From an uncultured Candidatus Saccharibacteria bacterium (GTDB lineage: Bacteria; Patescibacteriota; WWE3; UBA101185; UBA10185), in NCBI GenBank assembly GCA_964510435.1, contig CAZEBU010000004.1, positions 1 through 59,676 of the forward strand: a stretch of DNA of 59,676 bases. Direction: 5' to 3'. The position numbers and the translations under genes are program-made. This document shows, one piece after another, positions 27,895 to 36,471 of the stretch (positions are counted from its first letter, which is position 1; each line of letters starts with the position of its first letter). The notes beneath the pieces were generated by a model. That model had not been told where the DNA came from. It was given only the letters and a program-made list of their open reading frames with translations, and made no database searches.

Positions 27895-29913
27895 ATGCTC
27901 GAACTTGAGACACCGGTCAGCGCACTACCAAAAATAGGTCCAAAATATAAAAAACTATTGGAAAACCTGGAAATAAACACTGTTGAAGATCTTTTATACC
28001 ATTTTCCTTTTAGATACGACGATTTCTCAGAAATCAAAAAAGTACGTGATTTGCAAAGTGGCGATATTGCCACTGTACAAGGAATATTAGGCCCTGTGAG
28101 GAATATATTTACTCGATATAGGAAAAGACTGACACAAACAAAAGTAGTGGACGACACAGGGGGTATAAATGTAGTTTGGTTTAACAGCCATTATCTTAAA
28201 AAAACTTTGCAGAGCGGGAGGAACTACAATTTTAGCGGCAAAATATCCTCTTTCGGTAACAGACTAAGCCTGGTTTCGCCCTCCTTCGAGCTGGTTGGAG
28301 AAGACACATTAGATACAGGCAGACTGGTGCCGGTCTATCCGGAAACAGCGGGGGTATCATCTAAGTGGCTTAGGGCCAGGATCAAACATGCATTATCTAA
28401 AACAGGAGATTTGGCAGAATTCTTACCGGAAACAATACTAGAAAAGGAAAGTTTGTTGGAATTAAACCATGCTCTACAGATGTTTCACTTTCCGGATTCT
28501 CATCAAGAGGCAGAGCAAGCTAAAAAGAGGTTTCAGTTGGAGGAGCTTTTCTTGGAACTACTTAACGTAGAGAAACGGAAAGAGACTTGGCAAGAGCATC
28601 TTAAAGCCATATCCATTAATAATCGGGGACACGAAAAAGAGATCCGAGACCTAAGGAATTCCTTACCCTTTAGGCTAACTTCGTCCCAAGAGCAGGCTAT
28701 AAGGGAAATAATAGTGGATATAGAACAGAAAAACCCCATGAATAGATTACTAGAGGGTGATGTTGGTACCGGAAAGACCATCGTGGCTATTATTTCTTCG
28801 TACATCACCTATTTAAACGGTGCTAGCACGCTCTATATGGCGCCTACAGAGCTTTTAGCTAGACAGCACTATGAAACATACAAAAAACACCTAGAACCTT
28901 TTGGGGTAAGGATAAATTTGCTGACTTCCAGCGCTAAAACTGAGATCGGGGACACAGCGCACATAACCATAGGTACACATGCGCTTTTATTTAAAGGGGC
29001 GTTTCAAAAAGTGGCTCTGGTGGTGATAGATGAGCAACACAGATTTGGTGTAGAGCAGCGTGGTAAGCTTATTAATCTTAATACTGACAAAACTACGCCT
29101 CATCTGCTCACCATGACAGCTACCCCCATACCTAGAACTCTAGCTTTAACTATTTACGGAGATCTGGAGATATCCAAAATTGAGGCTATTCCTCATAAAA
29201 ACAAGAGAGTTGCTACCAAAGTAGTCTCCGAAAAAGCCCGCCACAAGGCTTATCAATGGATCAAGCAAAGTGGAGAGCAAACTTTTATTGTCTGTCCTCT
29301 CATCGAAGAGTCAGAACATGAAAGCTTCGAAAATGTCAAAGCGGCTACTGCTGAGTTCGAAAATCTAAAAAAGGGTGCTTTCAAGAATCTAAAAATAGGT
29401 TTGCTGCACGGAAAAATGAAATCTCAAGAAAAAAGGGAGGTAGTGGAAAAATTTGATAGCGGCAAAATAAATGTTCTTGTCTCAACCCCGGTTATTGAGG
29501 TAGGCATAGACATTCCTGATGCAGCTATTATCGTCATAGAAAGCGCAGAGAGATACGGTTTAGCCAGCTTGCATCAACTGCGGGGTAGGGTAGGACGCGG
29601 AGAAAAACCCGGGCACTGTCTTGTCTTCATGAGCAACAATAGTAGAAGCTCGTATAAGCGTTTAAAATACCTGGAAGAAATAAACGACGGGCTAGCTTTG
29701 GCAGAAATAGATATGGAAATTAGAGGTTATGGAGATGTCTATGGTACCATGCAGCATGGATTTAAGAGGTTTAAAGTGGCAAAACTATCCGATTTAAAAA
29801 CTTTGGAAAAAGCCAAGAATTACGCACAAGAAATTCTTTCTGAACTGGACAACTATCCATTGCTAAACAAGAAATTAATCCGCAGGTCGGGGCGTTTTGT
29901 AGGCAGCAATTAG
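27895..29913 (+). CDS. recG: ATP-dependent DNA helicase RecG
   Basis: MNRLLEGDVGTGKT, DEQHRFGV, TATPIPRTL, HQLRGRVGRG. Confidence 0.97.
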   Translation: MLELETPVSALPKIGPKYKKLLENLEINTVEDLLYHFPFRYDDFSEIKKVRDLQSGDIATVQGILGPVRNIFTRYRKRLTQTKVVDDTGGINVVWFNSHYLKKTLQSGRNYNFSGKISSFGNRLSLVSPSFELVGEDTLDTGRLVPVYPETAGVSSKWLRARIKHALSKTGDLAEFLPETILEKESLLELNHALQMFHFPDSHQEAEQAKKRFQLEELFLELLNVEKRKETWQEHLKAISINNRGHEKEIRDLRNSLPFRLTSSQEQAIREIIVDIEQKNPMNRLLEGDVGTGKTIVAIISSYITYLNGASTLYMAPTELLARQHYETYKKHLEPFGVRINLLTSSAKTEIGDTAHITIGTHALLFKGAFQKVALVVIDEQHRFGVEQRGKLINLNTDKTTPHLLTMTATPIPRTLALTIYGDLEISKIEAIPHKNKRVATKVVSEKARHKAYQWIKQSGEQTFIVCPLIEESEHESFENVKAATAEFENLKKGAFKNLKIGLLHGKMKSQEKREVVEKFDSGKINVLVSTPVIEVGIDIPDAAIIVIESAERYGLASLHQLRGRVGRGEKPGHCLVFMSNNSRSSYKRLKYLEEINDGLALAEIDMEIRGYGDVYGTMQHGFKRFKVAKLSDLKTLEKAKNYAQEILSELDNYPLLNKKLIRRSGRFVGSN

Positions 29914-30006: not shown

Positions 30007-30102
30007 GGCGGGGTCATACCGCAAGGGTGGATGAGAAACGGACTGAAGGGCAGACACGCCCGTCTCCTATATTTCGCAGGTTCGAATCCTGTCCCCGCCA
30101 CC
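30007..30102 (+). ncRNA. tRNA-like RNA (perfect acceptor stem and T-arm, non-canonical D/anticodon region)
   Basis: GGCGGGG/CCCCGCC-A-CC, GCAGG-TTCGAAT-CCTGT; interior does not form a standard anticodon arm. Confidence 0.6.
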
Positions 30103-30103
30103 T

Positions 30104-30181
30104 GGGGAACACACCGCGTACTCTTCGCAGCTCCTCTCCCCCCACAAGCTGGGGACAAGAAGCGAAGTCGGTGTGTTCTCC
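30104..30181 (+). ncRNA. Long irregular hairpin RNA
   Basis: GGGGAACACACCG/CGGTGTGTTCTCC, CTTCGC/GCGAAG, CCCCA/TGGGG nested stems. Confidence 0.55.
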
Positions 30182-30189
30182 TTCCAAAC

Positions 30190-30261
30190 GCGGGCATAGC
30201 TCAGTGGCAGAGCATCAGAGTCATATCCTGAAGGTCGGGGGTTCGAATCCTCCAGCCCGCA
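30190..30261 (+). tRNA. Degenerate tRNA with CAT anticodon (fMet/Met-like, probably pseudo)
   Basis: Canonical D- and T-arms; anticodon arm TCAGA-GTCATAT-CCTGA with A.C mismatch; A.A mismatch in the acceptor stem; no encoded CCA. Confidence 0.7.
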
Positions 30262-30329
30262 CTGGGGATCTTCTCATCGTCCTACGCGATCCTAAACGGA
30301 TCTCGTTTGAGAAGTGACTCAGCACCACC

Positions 30330-30399: not shown

Positions 30400-30951
30400 A
30401 TGATAAGGATCACCACCGGCAAAGCCAAAAACAAAAAACTCGCCGCTCCTAAGCTACCCGGGTATAGGTCGGTGCAGGAAATAGCTAAGAATGCCTTGTT
30501 TTCCATCATTGGCAATAAGGTAAAAGGATCCTTATGTCTAGATCTCTTTGCCGGCAGCGGCAACCTAGGCTTAGAGGCTTTGAGCAGGGAAGCTAGATGG
30601 TGCGACTTTGTAGACCAGAACAAAATATCAACAAAAACCATCTCAGATAATATAAAAAAGTGCGATTTTTTAGAACTGGCGGAAGTCCATCTAAAAGATG
30701 CCGTTAAGTTTGCTGCCAACACGGAAAAATCATATGATCTCATCTTTGTTGATCCCTTTTACGAAGACACTTCCCAAATTTTCCTCATGCAAAATTTGGA
30801 AGAGATACTAAACGAAGACGGTCTAATAACTTTTTTTCATGGAAGAAACCTGGATATTAAAAAGGTAATTAAAAAGACGAATTTAGAAGTAGTAGATACG
30901 AGAAGATTCGGAAAAAGTTATTTTAGTACTATCAAGAAAGCAGGACCTTAA
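30400..30951 (+). CDS. rsmD: 16S rRNA m2G966 methyltransferase RsmD-like
   Basis: IRITTGKAK, LDLFAGSGNLGLEALSR, IFVDPFY. Confidence 0.88.
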   Translation: MIRITTGKAKNKKLAAPKLPGYRSVQEIAKNALFSIIGNKVKGSLCLDLFAGSGNLGLEALSREARWCDFVDQNKISTKTISDNIKKCDFLELAEVHLKDAVKFAANTEKSYDLIFVDPFYEDTSQIFLMQNLEEILNEDGLITFFHGRNLDIKKVIKKTNLEVVDTRRFGKSYFSTIKKAGP

Positions 30952-31228
30952 AGACTAGATATCCAAAGGCATAACCTCCTAGAAAATATATCAGATACAC
31001 AAAGATCTTGCTTAGCTCTCTTTGAGATCTGGCTATACCTGATTCGCCGTGTTTATAATAGCGGACTAAGGACCAGAGCAACCCTATTACTAAGCCTGCC
31101 ACCAACCCCTGCGTCATTATTTCCAGATCAAAATCAAACTTTGGAGCAAAATACGAGAGCGCAAAACCGGATACTCTTAATACTCCTGCTAGTTTTTTAT
31201 TTATTATAATTTCTTTAAAAAGCCGCAT
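30932..31228 (-). CDS. Small hypothetical membrane protein
   Basis: Three hydrophobic segments. Confidence 0.6.
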   Translation of the reverse strand: MRLFKEIIINKKLAGVLRVSGFALSYFAPKFDFDLEIMTQGLVAGLVIGLLWSLVRYYKHGESGIARSQRELSKIFVYLIYFLGGYAFGYLVFKVLLS

Positions 31229-31346
31229 ATCTTAACACTGACCCTTTTAGTATAAACTAAAAGAAAATTTCCCTCTAGAAATATCAAGAATTTCCTGCAT
31301 AATAAAAAGGTTGCAAAAGTATAAAAATTAAGATATAAGAGGCACT

Positions 31347-31493
31347 ATGGCTGTACCAAAAAGAAAACATTCAAAAGGACGTACCAGAAGGAAAAGGAAC
31401 GCTCATTATAAGAGGACTCCTGTGAAAGTTGTAAAAACTGATGATGATAAAGGGTATAAGAGACCTCACGTTGATGAATATATTGAGGTATAA
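31347..31493 (+). CDS. rpmF: 50S ribosomal protein L32 (Cys-free, 48 aa; not in the ORF track)
   Basis: MAVPKRKHSKGRTRRKR...YKRPHV. Confidence 0.92.
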   Translation: MAVPKRKHSKGRTRRKRNAHYKRTPVKVVKTDDDKGYKRPHVDEYIEV

Positions 31494-31931
31494 ATGAAAT
31501 CAAAAGCAGATCCGAGACATGCGGCAAGAAAACTGGCTCTTTCTTCGATCTTTTGCTGGCTCTTTTCAGAACCTCAGGAAGAAGAAACGCTGGATTTATG
31601 CAAAAAACTCTTGGAAGACCCTTCTGTTGATCTTAACCTTACTCAAAACATAGTCGCAGGTGTAAAAAAACACAAAAAGGAGATTGATGAAATAATCAAG
31701 CAATGTGCTACGGACTGGCCTTTAGATAAAATATCAAAAGTAGATTTGGTGGTTCTAAGAATATCCATCTTTGAACTACTTTATGACAATAAAAAAGTAC
31801 CGGAAAAGGTTGCCATAGACGAAGCTGTAGAACTTGCCAAGGAATTCGGCAACGACACATCATCAAAATTTGTTAATGGAGTTTTAGGTACGGTAGTAGA
31901 CTTAAAAAAGGAGACAAAAAAAGATGGATAA
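31494..31931 (+). CDS. nusB: Transcription antitermination factor NusB
   Basis: [39 protein letters not shown]. Confidence 0.96.
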
Positions 31932-32160
31932 ATATATACACAGAATAATAGCCATAATTATTGAAAAAACAGGTGCTGATCCTGAAGACATCAAAGAGTC
32001 CTCCTACTTGGAAGATGATCTAAATATCGGGGAGATTGAGCTGGTGGAAATCATTTCTGCAATAGAAGATGAATACAAAATTGAGTTTGATGATAATAAA
32101 AAAGAAAATATTACCTCAGTAATTGACCTGGTAGAAATTGTCATGGAAAAATTGGAATAA
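31924..32160 (+). CDS. acpP: Acyl carrier protein homologue lacking the phosphopantetheine Ser
   Basis: Acidic 78-aa ACP pattern; [15 protein letters not shown] aligns to [14 protein letters not shown]. Confidence 0.75.
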
Positions 32161-32164
32161 ATCT

Positions 32165-32860
32165 ATGAACTTCGATAAAAAAGGCCTAGAAAAAATCCTG
32201 CAAACCAAGATCAAGGATGTGGAGCTGTATAAAACCGCTCTTACTCACCGTTCTTTTTTAAATGAACATCCGGAATACAGTAACCCTTCCAATGAAAGAT
32301 TGGAATTTTTAGGTGACGCTGTTTTGCAGGTCGTTACTTCACAATACCTGTACGAAAACTATGCCAATGCCCCGGAAGGGGATCTTACTAATTATAGAGC
32401 TGCCTTAGTTAATACCACCTCTATAGGCAACGAGGCTAAAAGGCTGGGATATGGAGAATTATTACTGCTCTCCAACGGAGAAGAAAGTACCGGAGGAAGA
32501 AACAGGGAATACATTTTAGCCAATACTTTCGAAGCTGTTCTGGGAGCTATTTACTTGGAAAACAACCTCGAACACTGCCGAAAATTCTTAATAAGAGAAC
32601 TCCTATATAAACTAGCCGATATTGTTGACAATGAGGGTTACAAAGACCATAAGTCAAAATTTCAAGAGCTCGTACAAGAAAAATTTGGAGTTACACCTGT
32701 ATACAAAGTTGTTAGGTCGTGGGGCTCCGACCACGAAAAAACCTTCAGGATCGCCGTCTATGTTGCTGATAGAGAGTTTGGTAAAGGGGATGGGGGCAGC
32801 AAGCAGAAAGCCGAGCAAAACGCGGCACAAAAGGCAATAGACAAGCTTAAAAGCCTGTGA
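32165..32860 (+). CDS. rnc: Ribonuclease III
   Basis: ALTHRS, NERLEFLGDAVL, dsRBD KSKFQE. Confidence 0.97.
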   Translation: MNFDKKGLEKILQTKIKDVELYKTALTHRSFLNEHPEYSNPSNERLEFLGDAVLQVVTSQYLYENYANAPEGDLTNYRAALVNTTSIGNEAKRLGYGELLLLSNGEESTGGRNREYILANTFEAVLGAIYLENNLEHCRKFLIRELLYKLADIVDNEGYKDHKSKFQELVQEKFGVTPVYKVVRSWGSDHEKTFRIAVYVADREFGKGDGGSKQKAEQNAAQKAIDKLKSL

Positions 32861-32876
32861 TAGTATAGCTTCCGTT

Positions 32877-33158
32877 ATGTCAGTAAGTATCAGATTAGCT
32901 AAATACGGCAAGAGACACGCACCCTCGTATAGGGTAGTGGTCACTAAAACTCGTACTAAACGAAGTGGAAAATCAATTGATATCATTGGTTTTTACAACC
33001 CTTCAGACCCTACCAGTAAATTCAAGATCAACAAAGAAAAGTACGAAGACTGGATCAAGAAGGGAGCTATCGTTTCTGAGGCAGTAAAAAAACTGGTAGC
33101 CGGAACATATGAGTATATAAAGTATGCACCAACCAAAAAAGAGGAGGGGTCTAACTGA
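32877..33158 (+). CDS. rpsP: 30S ribosomal protein S16
   Basis: IRLAKYGKRHAPSYRVVV, GFYNP. Confidence 0.96.
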   Translation: MSVSIRLAKYGKRHAPSYRVVVTKTRTKRSGKSIDIIGFYNPSDPTSKFKINKEKYEDWIKKGAIVSEAVKKLVAGTYEYIKYAPTKKEEGSN

Positions 33159-33169
33159 GGGTACTTGCT

Positions 33170-33424
33170 ATGAAAGAGTTTATCACCTACTTATTAGAGC
33201 AACTAGTGAACAAGCCTGAGCAGATAGTGGTTAATGAAAGCAAAGAAAATGGCTTTTCAAAATATATCATCGAAGTAGCAGATGAGGATATGGGCTTTGT
33301 CATAGGAAAAGGTGGTAGAACCATTAGGAGCATTCGCTCATTGGTGAAATCAAAAGCTATCAAAGAAGGTATTGGAGTTCGTGTTGAACTAAAAGATAAT
33401 GATCTCAACGAAGAAAATGATTAA
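33170..33424 (+). CDS. khpA: KH-domain RNA-binding protein KhpA
   Basis: DMGFVIGKGGRTIRSIR; follows rpsP. Confidence 0.9.
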   Translation: MKEFITYLLEQLVNKPEQIVVNESKENGFSKYIIEVADEDMGFVIGKGGRTIRSIRSLVKSKAIKEGIGVRVELKDNDLNEEND

Positions 33425-34064
33425 ATTTAATATCATAACTCTTTTTCCGGATCTAATTAAATATCATCTAAATAATTTACCTTATAAAAGGGCGCTGCAG
33501 AAAAAGCTTATCGAAGTTAATATAGTTAATTTGCGGACTTATGCTCTAGATAGCTATGGTACGGTTGATGATAAACCTTATGGGGGAGGGACGGGAATGC
33601 TGCTTAGGATCGAGCCTATTTACAAAGCGCTAGAAGATCTAAAATTAAGGGGTAATAAAAGTAAAAAAATATTGTTGTCCCCAAAAGGTAAGAAATATAA
33701 TCAAAAAAAGGCGCGGTTATTTGCTGATCTGGCTGAGCTCACTCTGATCTGTGGCCGTTACGAAGGGGTGGACGCAAGAGTAGAAGAACTCGTTGATGAG
33801 TCACTATCCGTTGGTGACTACATTTTATCAGGAGGTGAGTTGGGAGCACTCATTGTTATGGAAAGTACCACAAGATTGATTCCCGGTGTTTTAGAAAAAG
33901 AAGAAGCAGTCAGTATAGAATCTTTTACCGACAATCAATTAGAATATCCCCAATATACCCGTCCGGAAAAATTTAAAGGGCTGAGCGTACCGGAAGTTTT
34001 ATTATCAGGAAATCACAAAAAAATCGAGAAGTGGAGAAAAGTAAAGTCTCAAAAAGCTGAGTGA
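33417..34064 (+). CDS. trmD: tRNA (guanine37-N1)-methyltransferase
   Basis: TLFP, VDDKPYGGG.GM, CGRYEGVD.R, GDYILSGGE. Confidence 0.97.
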   Translation: MIKFNIITLFPDLIKYHLNNLPYKRALQKKLIEVNIVNLRTYALDSYGTVDDKPYGGGTGMLLRIEPIYKALEDLKLRGNKSKKILLSPKGKKYNQKKARLFADLAELTLICGRYEGVDARVEELVDESLSVGDYILSGGELGALIVMESTTRLIPGVLEKEEAVSIESFTDNQLEYPQYTRPEKFKGLSVPEVLLSGNHKKIEKWRKVKSQKAE

Positions 34065-34067
34065 GAC

Positions 34068-34892
34068 TTATGGGCTGGGAAATATCGACTCCTCACTTTC
34101 AGCACCTTCAGTAGGCGCCTCTTCTTCCTCCTCAGTAGGAGCTTCAATCACAGGAACGGATGTGTCAACAAAATTAGGATCGTAATATTTCAAGTTTTTA
34201 ACCCTGTTTATCAGATCCAGAAAATCTTGGTTGGAAATATTTAGATCTATGGCATCGTCGGTAACCGCATCTGATTCGATATAAAGGTACGGGGATTGCA
34301 AAACAAAGTTTATACCCAAGACTTCCTCGAAATCAGTGGTACTAAGAGAATATCTGAACTGATCTATATTGATCAGCCTAGCGGCGTTTTCTACATTTTC
34401 AATAAACGTGATTAGCTGGGCAAAGCTGCCAACTGCCCCTAAGTTAATGGTTACATAATTGTAAGAAATAGCGCCCGCAATCTCACTTTCGGTTGTTGCC
34501 CCCAAACCATAGTTTAATCTGCTCACTAGTAATCCTGATTCTCTAGCAATTCTATCAACTTGGGTTAACAGACCGGGGATTAATTCTTCCGACAACAATA
34601 CTTTGTTCACCAAGTTGGAATTTTCATCGACTATGCTTTTGAAATCAACAAGTCTGTTGAGATTATTTAATTTATTTCGCAGGTTTGTTTCTAAATTTGA
34701 TTTAACGGCAATTTCCGACATTAGATCAGGCAAATCCTTGTAGGAAGGGTAGAGAATAAAAAACCCAATAGCTGCAGACAATAACAATGAAACTAAAGGA
34801 ACAATGTAATTGATAAGAGTTTCCTTAAAACCGCTAATATCAACTTTTATATTTAAACTCCGTTTTTTGGCATCCGGTTTTTTTTCACTCAT
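34068..34892 (-). CDS. pilO: Type IV pilus assembly protein PilO-like
   Basis: TM plus coiled coil, GSFAQL..FI..VE...RLI; follows pilM-pilN. Confidence 0.75.
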   Translation of the reverse strand: MSEKKPDAKKRSLNIKVDISGFKETLINYIVPLVSLLLSAAIGFFILYPSYKDLPDLMSEIAVKSNLETNLRNKLNNLNRLVDFKSIVDENSNLVNKVLLSEELIPGLLTQVDRIARESGLLVSRLNYGLGATTESEIAGAISYNYVTINLGAVGSFAQLITFIENVENAARLINIDQFRYSLSTTDFEEVLGINFVLQSPYLYIESDAVTDDAIDLNISNQDFLDLINRVKNLKYYDPNFVDTSVPVIEAPTEEEEEAPTEGAESEESIFPSP

Positions 34893-35439
34893 GCAATAAC
34901 TCCGTATTAAAAGTTACTACAACAAAAAAGGCTATCTTATCTAATCTACTTTCCAACCCAACAGAATGGAGTTCCACCTCCGAGAAAAATGCTCTTTCCA
35001 ACAACCTATTGCTAAAATCTTGTACTGCGTTGTAACTTTCAGCTCTGCCGGAAACCGAAACCGTACTGCCATCTTTCCCCAATCCAAACGAATCCACTAC
35101 CACATCTTCCGGGGTACTGACTTCCAACTCCCTCAACAGGCGAGAGTAGTAAATCCTTTCATCGAATATTGCTTGTAATGTTGTGGATTTTGAGTAGAGA
35201 TTCCTTGCGTTTATCTCAATATCAGCCAGATCATTAATGCCGCCTCTTAAACTTTCTATACTGGTGTCAAGGGCCACTATTTGCTGTTTCAGGGAATAAA
35301 CTCGGTAATAAAAATAAGCTCCGGCTAGGCTAACTAGGACTAAGATTATTACCGCTAGAATAGTGCTAAACTTAACTACTTTTGTTTTTGTCTGTTGAAC
35401 TCTTTCTTCTTTTGGTATTAAATTAATTGTTTCCGGCAT
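34885..35439 (-). CDS. pilN: Type IV pilus assembly protein PilN-like
   Basis: INLIP N-terminal motif, TM, coiled coil. Confidence 0.8.
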   Translation of the reverse strand: MPETINLIPKEERVQQTKTKVVKFSTILAVIILVLVSLAGAYFYYRVYSLKQQIVALDTSIESLRGGINDLADIEINARNLYSKSTTLQAIFDERIYYSRLLRELEVSTPEDVVVDSFGLGKDGSTVSVSGRAESYNAVQDFSNRLLERAFFSEVELHSVGLESRLDKIAFFVVVTFNTELLHE

Positions 35440-36471
35440 TTATATCTCCTTTAAAGCCAATCCCACAGGCGCAGAAAATAACGGCCCATTCTCTATGTGC
35501 CAATCTCTTTTGTCTTCTATTTCTCTGGTAAAGGTGACGTTTTTAAAAGGGTTAGCTAATTCAACCTCCAAACTAAGATTATTCGCCATGTATAAAAGTA
35601 AGCCTGGCATTAGGGCAGAGCCTCCCGAGAGTATCACTCTATTGATATTAACACTTGGGTGGTGTGTTGTAAAAAAAACTTGTGCTCGTCCTACCTCGCT
35701 AATTATGCTATCAAACATTGGTTTAAGTACTGTAAATATTTTACCTTCCGCTTGCTCTTCATTTAATCCATAGGCCTTTTTGTATTCCTCCGCTTGAATG
35801 TAATCAAGGTTTAAGTTTTGTTCAATACTTCTGGACATGGCATCCCCACCAAGAGACAAGGTTCTGGTGAAGACCACAAAGCCCTTTAGGGAAATGATGA
35901 TCAGCGATTTTTGATAACCCAAATGTAAAATTAACGAAGCTGATGAAGTACCCATGTCTGACAGCGACCTGCCAATGGACAATGCCTCCGGTTCAACTCC
36001 TACAGGTGTGAGTTTGGCTTCTTTGATAATGGAGATATATTTTTCGATCAATTCTTTTTTTGCTGCTACCAACTGGACACTAATTTTACCTTCCTGACTA
36101 GAGGGGATATCTAATTTCTGATAAGAAAGGTTGACTTCTTTTAAGGGTAGGGGAATATACTGCTCTGCTTCGAAAGTGATAGAGCTATCTAACTCCTTGT
36201 CACTCATCTTGGGTACAGTGATAACACGCATGAAAATGTCTTTTTCCTCCAAAGCTATGACTACTTTTGAGGTACTGAAACCGGACTCACGTATAAAATC
36301 TCTGATGGCGTTGGCGTAATCTTTTTGAGAGCTCTTTTCAGCATCATCAAGATTTATTTTAGGATTATCGTAAATACCGGACCTTAACAGAATAGTACCT
36401 TTTTTGGATCTTTCAATTTCAACGGCTCTAAATGTGTGTTTTCCTAGATCTAGTCCTATTACTGTGGGCAT
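35440..36471 (-). CDS. pilM: Type IV pilus assembly protein PilM
   Basis: IGLDLG, EAEQYIPLP, LSGGSA..PGL actin-like fold. Confidence 0.92.
   Translation of the reverse strand: MPTVIGLDLGKHTFRAVEIERSKKGTILLRSGIYDNPKINLDDAEKSSQKDYANAIRDFIRESGFSTSKVVIALEEKDIFMRVITVPKMSDKELDSSITFEAEQYIPLPLKEVNLSYQKLDIPSSQEGKISVQLVAAKKELIEKYISIIKEAKLTPVGVEPEALSIGRSLSDMGTSSASLILHLGYQKSLIIISLKGFVVFTRTLSLGGDAMSRSIEQNLNLDYIQAEEYKKAYGLNEEQAEGKIFTVLKPMFDSIISEVGRAQVFFTTHHPSVNINRVILSGGSALMPGLLLYMANNLSLEVELANPFKNVTFTREIEDKRDWHIENGPLFSAPVGLALKEI

Follow-up and report, generated by a model that had tools for sequence, protein, structure and literature searches.

A serine-less acyl carrier protein-like gene between nusB and rnc in WWE3 and other Patescibacteria, with a putative non-carrier role

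The window analysed here, a stretch of 59,676 nucleotides, contains a cluster of co-directional genes in which a small acyl carrier protein (ACP)-like gene lies between nusB and rnc (Table 1). Pfam searches bear out the arrangement rpmF-nusB-acp-rnc that had originally been read from the DNA, as the coordinates do the overlap with nusB, and Pfam also identifies S16 (rpsP) and KhpA among the neighbours. The ACP-like ORF ends 4 nt before the rnc ATG, and an in-frame TTG at 32138 is a possible alternative start for rnc. The order recG-rsmD-rpmF-nusB-ACP-rnc-rpsP-khpA-trmD recurs in 38/38 WWE3 loci of a pattern-selected set. These came from 39 GTDB loci, nearly all titled candidate division WWE3 (CPR) and including the complete genome RAAC2_WWE3_1, fetched with a peptide pattern that requires a residue other than serine at the cofactor site. 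Since the pattern preselects this residue, the 39 loci were used for synteny only and not for counts of serine loss. The conserved order was found again in 18 further loci of the class and in 17 loci of other families.

Table 1. Features of the ACP-like locus in the window
Feature	Position	Strand	Details and basis
recG	27895-29913		Upstream of the cluster
Co-directional cluster rsmD - rpmF - nusB - ACP-like - rnc - rpsP - khpA - trmD	30400..34064	+	Pfam; order conserved in relatives
rsmD-like methylase gene	30400-30951		Pfam
rpmF (ribosomal protein L32)	31347..31493	+	48 aa; Pfam Ribosomal_L32p 1e-6; upstream marker of the ancestral rpmF-plsX-fab-acpP cluster
nusB	31494..31931	+	145 aa; 8-nt overlap of its 3' end with the ACP-like gene (ATGGATAA); Pfam NusB 3e-34
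Shine-Dalgarno-like AAGGAG	31908..31913	+	Within the nusB 3' end, 10 nt before the ACP-like ATG; read from sequence
Ser-less ACP-like gene	31924..32160	+	ATG start, 78 codons and a stop; 23 acidic against 8 basic residues, pI 4.2
Best-conserved segment: loop D32-L33-N34 with the acidic side of helix II (E39, E42, E48, E49)	32017..32070	+	109-sequence column counts; equivalent to the ACP 'recognition helix'
GAG codon, Glu37, at the phosphopantetheine-attachment Ser position of canonical ACP, start of helix II	32032..32034	+	Gapless phmmer alignment, class-wide column count, AF2 model
rnc (RNase III)	32165..32860	+	231 aa from the ATG at 32165; Pfam Ribonucleas_3_3 1e-36, dsrm 1e-17

Several minor features accompany the cluster. 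The 48-aa L32 covers just positions 1-40 of the 56-position Pfam model. On the minus strand between rsmD and rpmF (30932-31228) lies a 98-aa hydrophobic ORF that has no family match and is conserved in close relatives only (tblastn matches in L007, L111 and L113). Upstream of a tRNA-Met (30190-30262), a GC-rich stretch on the plus strand (30007-30104) resembles a long-arm tRNA, with acceptor-like ends GGCGGGG ... CCCCGCCA and a T-loop GGTTCGAATCC; neither ARAGORN nor Rfam made a call there. Downstream of trmD, three co-directional genes on the minus strand (34068-36471) give a pilM/N/O-like impression from their translations and are candidates for type IV pilus assembly. Among sequencing runs, three DNA data sets from one study contain the sequence, and no RNA data set was found.

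The ACP-like protein scores 23.5 bits against Pfam PP-binding, just above the gathering cut-off of 20.8, and 36-49 bits against the NCBIfam ACP models, all under their cut-offs of 66-106 (TIGR00517, 40.7 against 70.45). A phmmer search of PDB sequences returned 98 ACP chains at E<=0.01. The top match, B. subtilis ACP (2x2b; E 2.8e-8), aligns without gaps across residues 5-74 and sets 'dlgadSld' opposite 'dlnigEie', so that the attachment serine is replaced by Glu37. The original prediction of an intact ORF with glutamate at the cofactor serine site, gapless to canonical ACP, is thereby confirmed. An AF2 model built from a 47-sequence alignment (pLDDT 90, pTM 0.75) has four helices, with helix II beginning at residue 37. 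The best Foldseek matches in the PDB are FAS-type ACPs, among them those of B. subtilis, T. maritima and T. thermophilus (TM 0.89-0.92, r.m.s.d. about 1 Å), and the structural neighbours extend to ACP bound to MukBEF, MmpL5 and NFS1-ISD11. The ESM Atlas returned only generic 'acyl carrier protein' clusters. The product is predicted from these models to have the four-helix ACP fold.

We then surveyed the cofactor site in relatives. Three close homologues (~72% identity) read NIGEME, NIGEIE and NISPIE. A HMMER search of cluster representatives gave 1342 matches at E<=1e-3; the best 150 of the 1342 were mostly multi-ACP synthases, and among those 150 all 13 short representatives (69-80 aa) have the form DDLN-x-x-[EQAP], lacking serine at the site. 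For an unbiased class survey, all 134 WWE3-class genomes were searched with a profile and all 97 positives retrieved. In these 97 genomes the gene lies between nusB and rnc and has no internal stops. It is present in 80/85 genomes of the window's family, 0/12 of family f4 and 0/5 of family f16; nusB abuts rnc in 4/4 f4 and f16 genomes examined, with -13 to 109 bp between them, which indicates clean loss of the gene. The serine column in the 97 genomes is occupied by E (60), D (13), P (7), Q, A and G (3 each), S and T (2 each), and H, N, K and R (1 each). The two that keep serine, G035 and G038, belong to deep-branching families and have the gene in the same nusB-rnc slot.

The survey was extended to 401 evenly drawn Patescibacteria genomes, from which 49 match regions outside the class were retrieved. 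PF00550 matched in 55 genomes and the 47-sequence profile in 67, the 67 including canonical ACPs. A serine-less copy sits exactly between nusB and rnc in 17 genomes of seven other family codes, with P in 6, E in 5, D in 3, A in 2 and T in 1. All canonical DSL-type small ACPs in the sample (G195, G353, G436, G215, G273, G206 and G375) map outside this slot. Serine is hence absent from 95/97 class genomes and from 17/17 same-slot genes of other families, and by sequence its loss is ancient and general rather than a private mutation. A quick IQ-TREE phylogeny (91 rows, 80 columns) is largely without resolved branches and fits one or several origins of the loss; six of the seven canonical DSL ACPs and a 'WDSF' carrier group are set apart by a branch with SH-aLRT 94.

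Two further observations concern the canonical proteins. Those of G195 (L067:877-3158) and G353 (L068:2989-5255) adjoin two tandem NMO-family (FabK-like) genes, and AcpS was not detected in either genome. In G436 (L069:2950-3578) two small ACP genes are adjacent, one with the 'DLN' hallmark yet with its serine kept (DLNADSLE), which may be an intermediate form.

Among the most conserved positions in 109 sequences, D32 is kept in 107, L33 in 108, N34 in 103, E39 in 99 (D in 7 more), E42 in 81 (D in 22 more), E48 in 93 and D68 in 87. These columns map to helix II, on its acidic side, and to the loop that precedes it, the acidic ridge being nearly invariant; in canonical ACP, helix II is the recognition helix. 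In 14 pairs (78-93% amino acid identity) the ACP-like gene has an NG86 dN/dS of 0.03-0.18, compared with 0.02-0.09 for nusB, 0.02-0.07 for rnc and 0.06-0.17 for rsmD in the same pairs, and similar values for rpsP and khpA; with dS at about 0.8-1.8, near saturation, these values are rough. Identity to three same-genus genomes is 58-65% for the ACP-like protein, 68-74% for NusB and 67-71% for RNase III. The gene is thus under strong purifying selection, with dN/dS like that of the neighbouring nusB and rnc.

These data bear on whether the ORF might be a decaying, functionless remnant, or persist only as a translational link between nusB and rnc. The gene has indeed been lost in several lineages. 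However, it is intact in 97/134 class genomes, evolves at dN/dS values like those of neighbouring essential genes, keeps specific surface residues nearly invariant and has a confidently predicted fold, all of which makes decay or mere coupling extremely improbable.

A reading of Glu37 as a phosphoserine mimic was considered and rejected as unnecessary, the site varying among E, D, P, Q, A, G, T, K and R. Helices generally favour E, D, P, Q, S, T and G in their first turn, and such residues being usual at helix N termini, glutamate needs no special 'phosphomimetic' meaning.

Loss of the phosphopantetheine serine would keep the protein from carrying acyl groups, and the host genome (886 kb in 11 contigs, 95% complete) was searched for the machinery that a carrier would use. 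Profile searches for AcpS, PlsX, ketoacyl synthase, FabD, FabA/Z, PlsC-type acyltransferase and PlsY found no match in it; the PPTase family PF01648 had none even at E<=1, and CoaE gave a sub-threshold match only. The absence of flanking fab or plsX genes, noted at the outset, therefore holds for the whole of this 95% complete genome as far as these profiles detect, and extends to acpS. The only PP-binding gene of the genome is the one at the locus.

The protein could still be a carrier if the prosthetic group were attached to another residue, or by an unrecognized transferase. PF01648 is also without a match in seven sampled genomes that have a canonical small DSL-type ACP, so that 'no AcpS' is weak evidence in Patescibacteria and the phylum could harbour a PPTase as yet unrecognized; moreover, G035 and G038 keep the serine. 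Against this, the site holds E, D, P, Q, A, G, K, R, H, N or T in 95/97 class genomes, no acyl-handling enzyme was found in the host genome, and no alternative Ser, Thr or Cys is conserved in the 109 sequences apart from T/S65, a structural residue of the ACP 'TV' motif. AcpS was found in 7/134 class genomes and 19/401 genomes of the phylum sample, but 6 of the 7 class genomes that have it still hold a serine-less copy, and it occurs in only 3/35 sampled genomes with such a copy. Where examined, AcpS adjoins a Ser-bearing AMP-binding/carrier fusion and not the serine-less gene. A carrier function of either kind is therefore very unlikely, and we are highly confident that the ACP-like protein no longer carries acyl groups and has been kept for a non-carrier role.

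The AcpS neighbourhoods define a cassette of their own. In some Patescibacteria AcpS forms a two-gene unit with an Aas-like protein of ~850 aa that combines AMP-binding, Ser-bearing carrier and PlsC-type acyltransferase domains, and the unit has the look of a device for scavenging and re-acylating lipids that comes with its own PPTase. In G038 (L060:52-2939) the AcpS neighbour is such an AMP-binding/PP-binding/acyltransferase fusion of about 850 aa. In G046 (L064:1495-3309) the ORF beside AcpS, cut at the locus end, has AMP-binding only, and a PP-binding match follows shortly downstream within one 843-aa frame. G109, G193, G288, G304 and G451 have similar open frames, of about 830-860 aa, and the cassette occurs together with a serine-less ACP in the genomes G046, G048 and G109.

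The position of the gene points to its origin. E. coli has the order yceD-rpmF-plsX-fabH-fabD-fabG-acpP-fabF, and B. subtilis an acpA-rnc-smc-ftsY operon for which an acpA-rnc mRNA is described (PMC4838370). The CPR order rpmF-(nusB)-ACP-rnc unites the rpmF...acpP adjacency of the one with the acpA-rnc adjacency of the other, the fab genes being gone, which suggests that the gene is a relic of housekeeping acpP; most simply, the old acpP would have been left in place. With the type-II FAS ACPs (E. coli AcpP, B. subtilis AcpA; PF00550, TIGR00517) the protein shares its length, the four-helix fold (TM about 0.9), an acidic helix II and its place in the chromosome, after rpmF and directly ahead of rnc. 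Unlike them, it has another residue (Glu37 here) in place of the DSL serine and an invariant DLN where they have DLG, falls short of every NCBIfam ACP cut-off, is encoded in a genome in which no PPTase, FAS or acyltransferase was detected, and is coupled or fused to NusB. This part of the gene order (acp-rnc, with rpmF upstream), being inherited from the ancestral fab cluster, does not by itself speak for an RNA role, and neighbourhood alone counts as weak evidence.

This inheritance also weighs on a role with RNase III. As an acidic protein it might regulate RNase III or the processing of rRNA, say as an inhibitor that mimics RNA or as an adaptor, with the product of the downstream gene as its target: it is very acidic (pI 4.2), and its gene lies directly upstream of rnc with a median gap of +4 nt, overlapping it in 18 of the 76 loci that have nusB, the ACP-like gene and rnc on one strand, from which the spacing statistics were drawn. 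We consider such a role unlikely, as the acp-rnc adjacency is older than the loss of the serine and none of the 79 loci scanned has an ACP-rnc fusion, against two with a fusion to nusB.

The nusB stop overlaps the ACP-like start in 47/74 loci, the median distance being -4 nt and that of the window -8, and in 2/79 loci scanned NusB and the ACP form a single open frame: in G026 of class family f7 and in G255 of family f86. The G026-type fusion is represented by P0157 (identical; three contigs, four sources) and by P0158, P0159 and P0160 at 72, 65 and 66% identity, with lengths of 223-233 aa; the G255-type fusion by P0155 (6 members) and P0156 (5 members, 6 contigs). Together these make six protein clusters in two lineages, from independent assemblies, all with NusB first and the ACP second. 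The two types have linkers of different length and different NusB subtypes, indicating two separate fusion events. An AF2 model of the natural fusion P0157 (pLDDT 92.5; pTM, the model's own confidence, 0.80) has a confident helical linker, the ACP domain being covered by just six fusion rows in the alignment, and is consistent with the two domains being fixed relative to each other.

These observations can be assembled into a putative history. The gene would descend from acpP/acpA and have stayed in its ancestral slot, after rpmF and before rnc, while Patescibacteria lost fatty-acid and phospholipid synthesis. As the phosphopantetheine serine was lost, the ACP fold would have persisted, together with the acidic 'recognition' side of helix II, with purifying selection maintaining the gene as a cofactor-free protein-binding module. 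Its most likely partner would be NusB, which is presumably co-translated with it and made in 1:1 amounts, and is covalently fused to it in two lineages; such a partnership would place the protein in rRNA transcription antitermination and rRNA maturation. That the cofactor-less ACP is kept as a NusB-associated acidic protein-binding subunit has, in our estimate, about an even chance of being correct, and we hold with the same middling confidence that it acts on or together with NusB in the antitermination or maturation of rRNA, using the conserved acidic side of helix II. The widest version, in which the former fatty-acid carrier of WWE3 and several other Patescibacteria lineages would be a stoichiometric, cofactor-free subunit of NusB and a new component of rRNA antitermination or maturation, is put forward tentatively. 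The idea from which the analysis started, a pseudo-ACP with a non-acyl role as an acidic interaction module in RNA or ribosome processes, gains support from the conserved NusB-ACP fusions in two lineages and the frequent nusB/ACP overlap, from which binding to NusB may be surmised.

Some findings tell against NusB as the partner. The ACP-like gene has been lost in some families of the class (f4 and f16), and most genomes of the phylum sample gave no match to it, so NusB works without it in most relatives. Adjacent genes can, furthermore, fuse by simple loss of a stop codon, and there are two fusion lineages only. The relic might instead be kept for an inherited hub role with a partner other than NusB, such as a cysteine desulfurase, a transporter, SecA or a ribosomal protein; its place between nusB and rnc would then be purely historical. 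ACP is a known hub, as its complexes with MukBEF, MmpL5 and NFS1-ISD11 among the structural neighbours illustrate; the acp-rnc and rpmF-acp adjacencies are ancestral; the gene can vanish while nusB and rnc stay adjacent; and the host genome has one Aminotran_5 cysteine desulfurase. Conversely, Complex1_LYR found no LYR-family adaptor in this genome at E<=1, and two independent conserved NusB-ACP fusions together with the start-stop overlaps point to NusB specifically. We regard a partner other than NusB as possible, though on the improbable side.

A precedent for such a protein exists in eukaryotes. The mitochondrial ACP of Plasmodium and other Apicomplexa is described as phosphopantetheine-less, bound to Isd11-Nfs1 and essential (Falekun et al. 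2021, eLife, PMC8547962). On that account it resembles the WWE3 protein as an ACP without the cofactor that was kept after FAS loss, there for essential protein binding; it differs in being eukaryotic and organellar with an LYR partner, Isd11 with Nfs1, whereas the WWE3 protein is bacterial, comes from a genome in which no LYR family was found, has NusB as its suggested partner and would be of independent origin. By analogy, the apicomplexan protein would be the closest functional parallel. Another comes from the mitoribosome, where the MALSU1-L0R8F8-mtACP module acts in assembly of the large subunit and depends on an acyl-phosphopantetheine inserted into the LYR protein. There, too, an ACP fold serves ribosome biogenesis rather than lipid synthesis, which for the WWE3 protein is a proposal; unlike in that module, neither acyl-phosphopantetheine nor an LYR protein was found in the WWE3 genome. 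Of the Nus factors of the rRNA antitermination complex, NusB-NusE/S10 binds BoxA, and we know of no ACP-like subunit in any described Nus complex. By comparison, the genetic partner of the WWE3 gene is NusB, through overlap and fusions, which makes its product a putative member of the complex.

In the literature searched, which omits most subscription journals, we found no description of a serine-less ACP in CPR bacteria; a paper on ACP in Patescibacteria deals with horizontal transfer of acpP only. What is new here is a cofactor-less ACP that is bacterial and tied to NusB, cofactor-less ACPs as such being already known. If the proposed role is correct, the protein would parallel, in bacteria, the way in which ACP was recruited into ribosome assembly and Fe-S biogenesis in mitochondria. 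CPR bacteria, whose machinery for transcription and ribosome biogenesis is poorly understood, would gain a lineage-specific factor of that machinery. The protein would also be a natural 'separation-of-function' ACP that isolates the non-lipid role. ACP is among the most connected bacterial proteins, and its non-lipid interactions are hard to study since it is essential for lipid synthesis. Here the lipid role is removed (no Ser, PPTase or FAS) and the protein kept, which makes the 'other' function directly testable with NusB and the ACP-like protein, which form a small, soluble pair for such work, or with a natural fusion. Pfam-based pipelines would likely name such proteins 'acyl carrier protein' and so introduce a false lipid metabolism into metabolic reconstructions.
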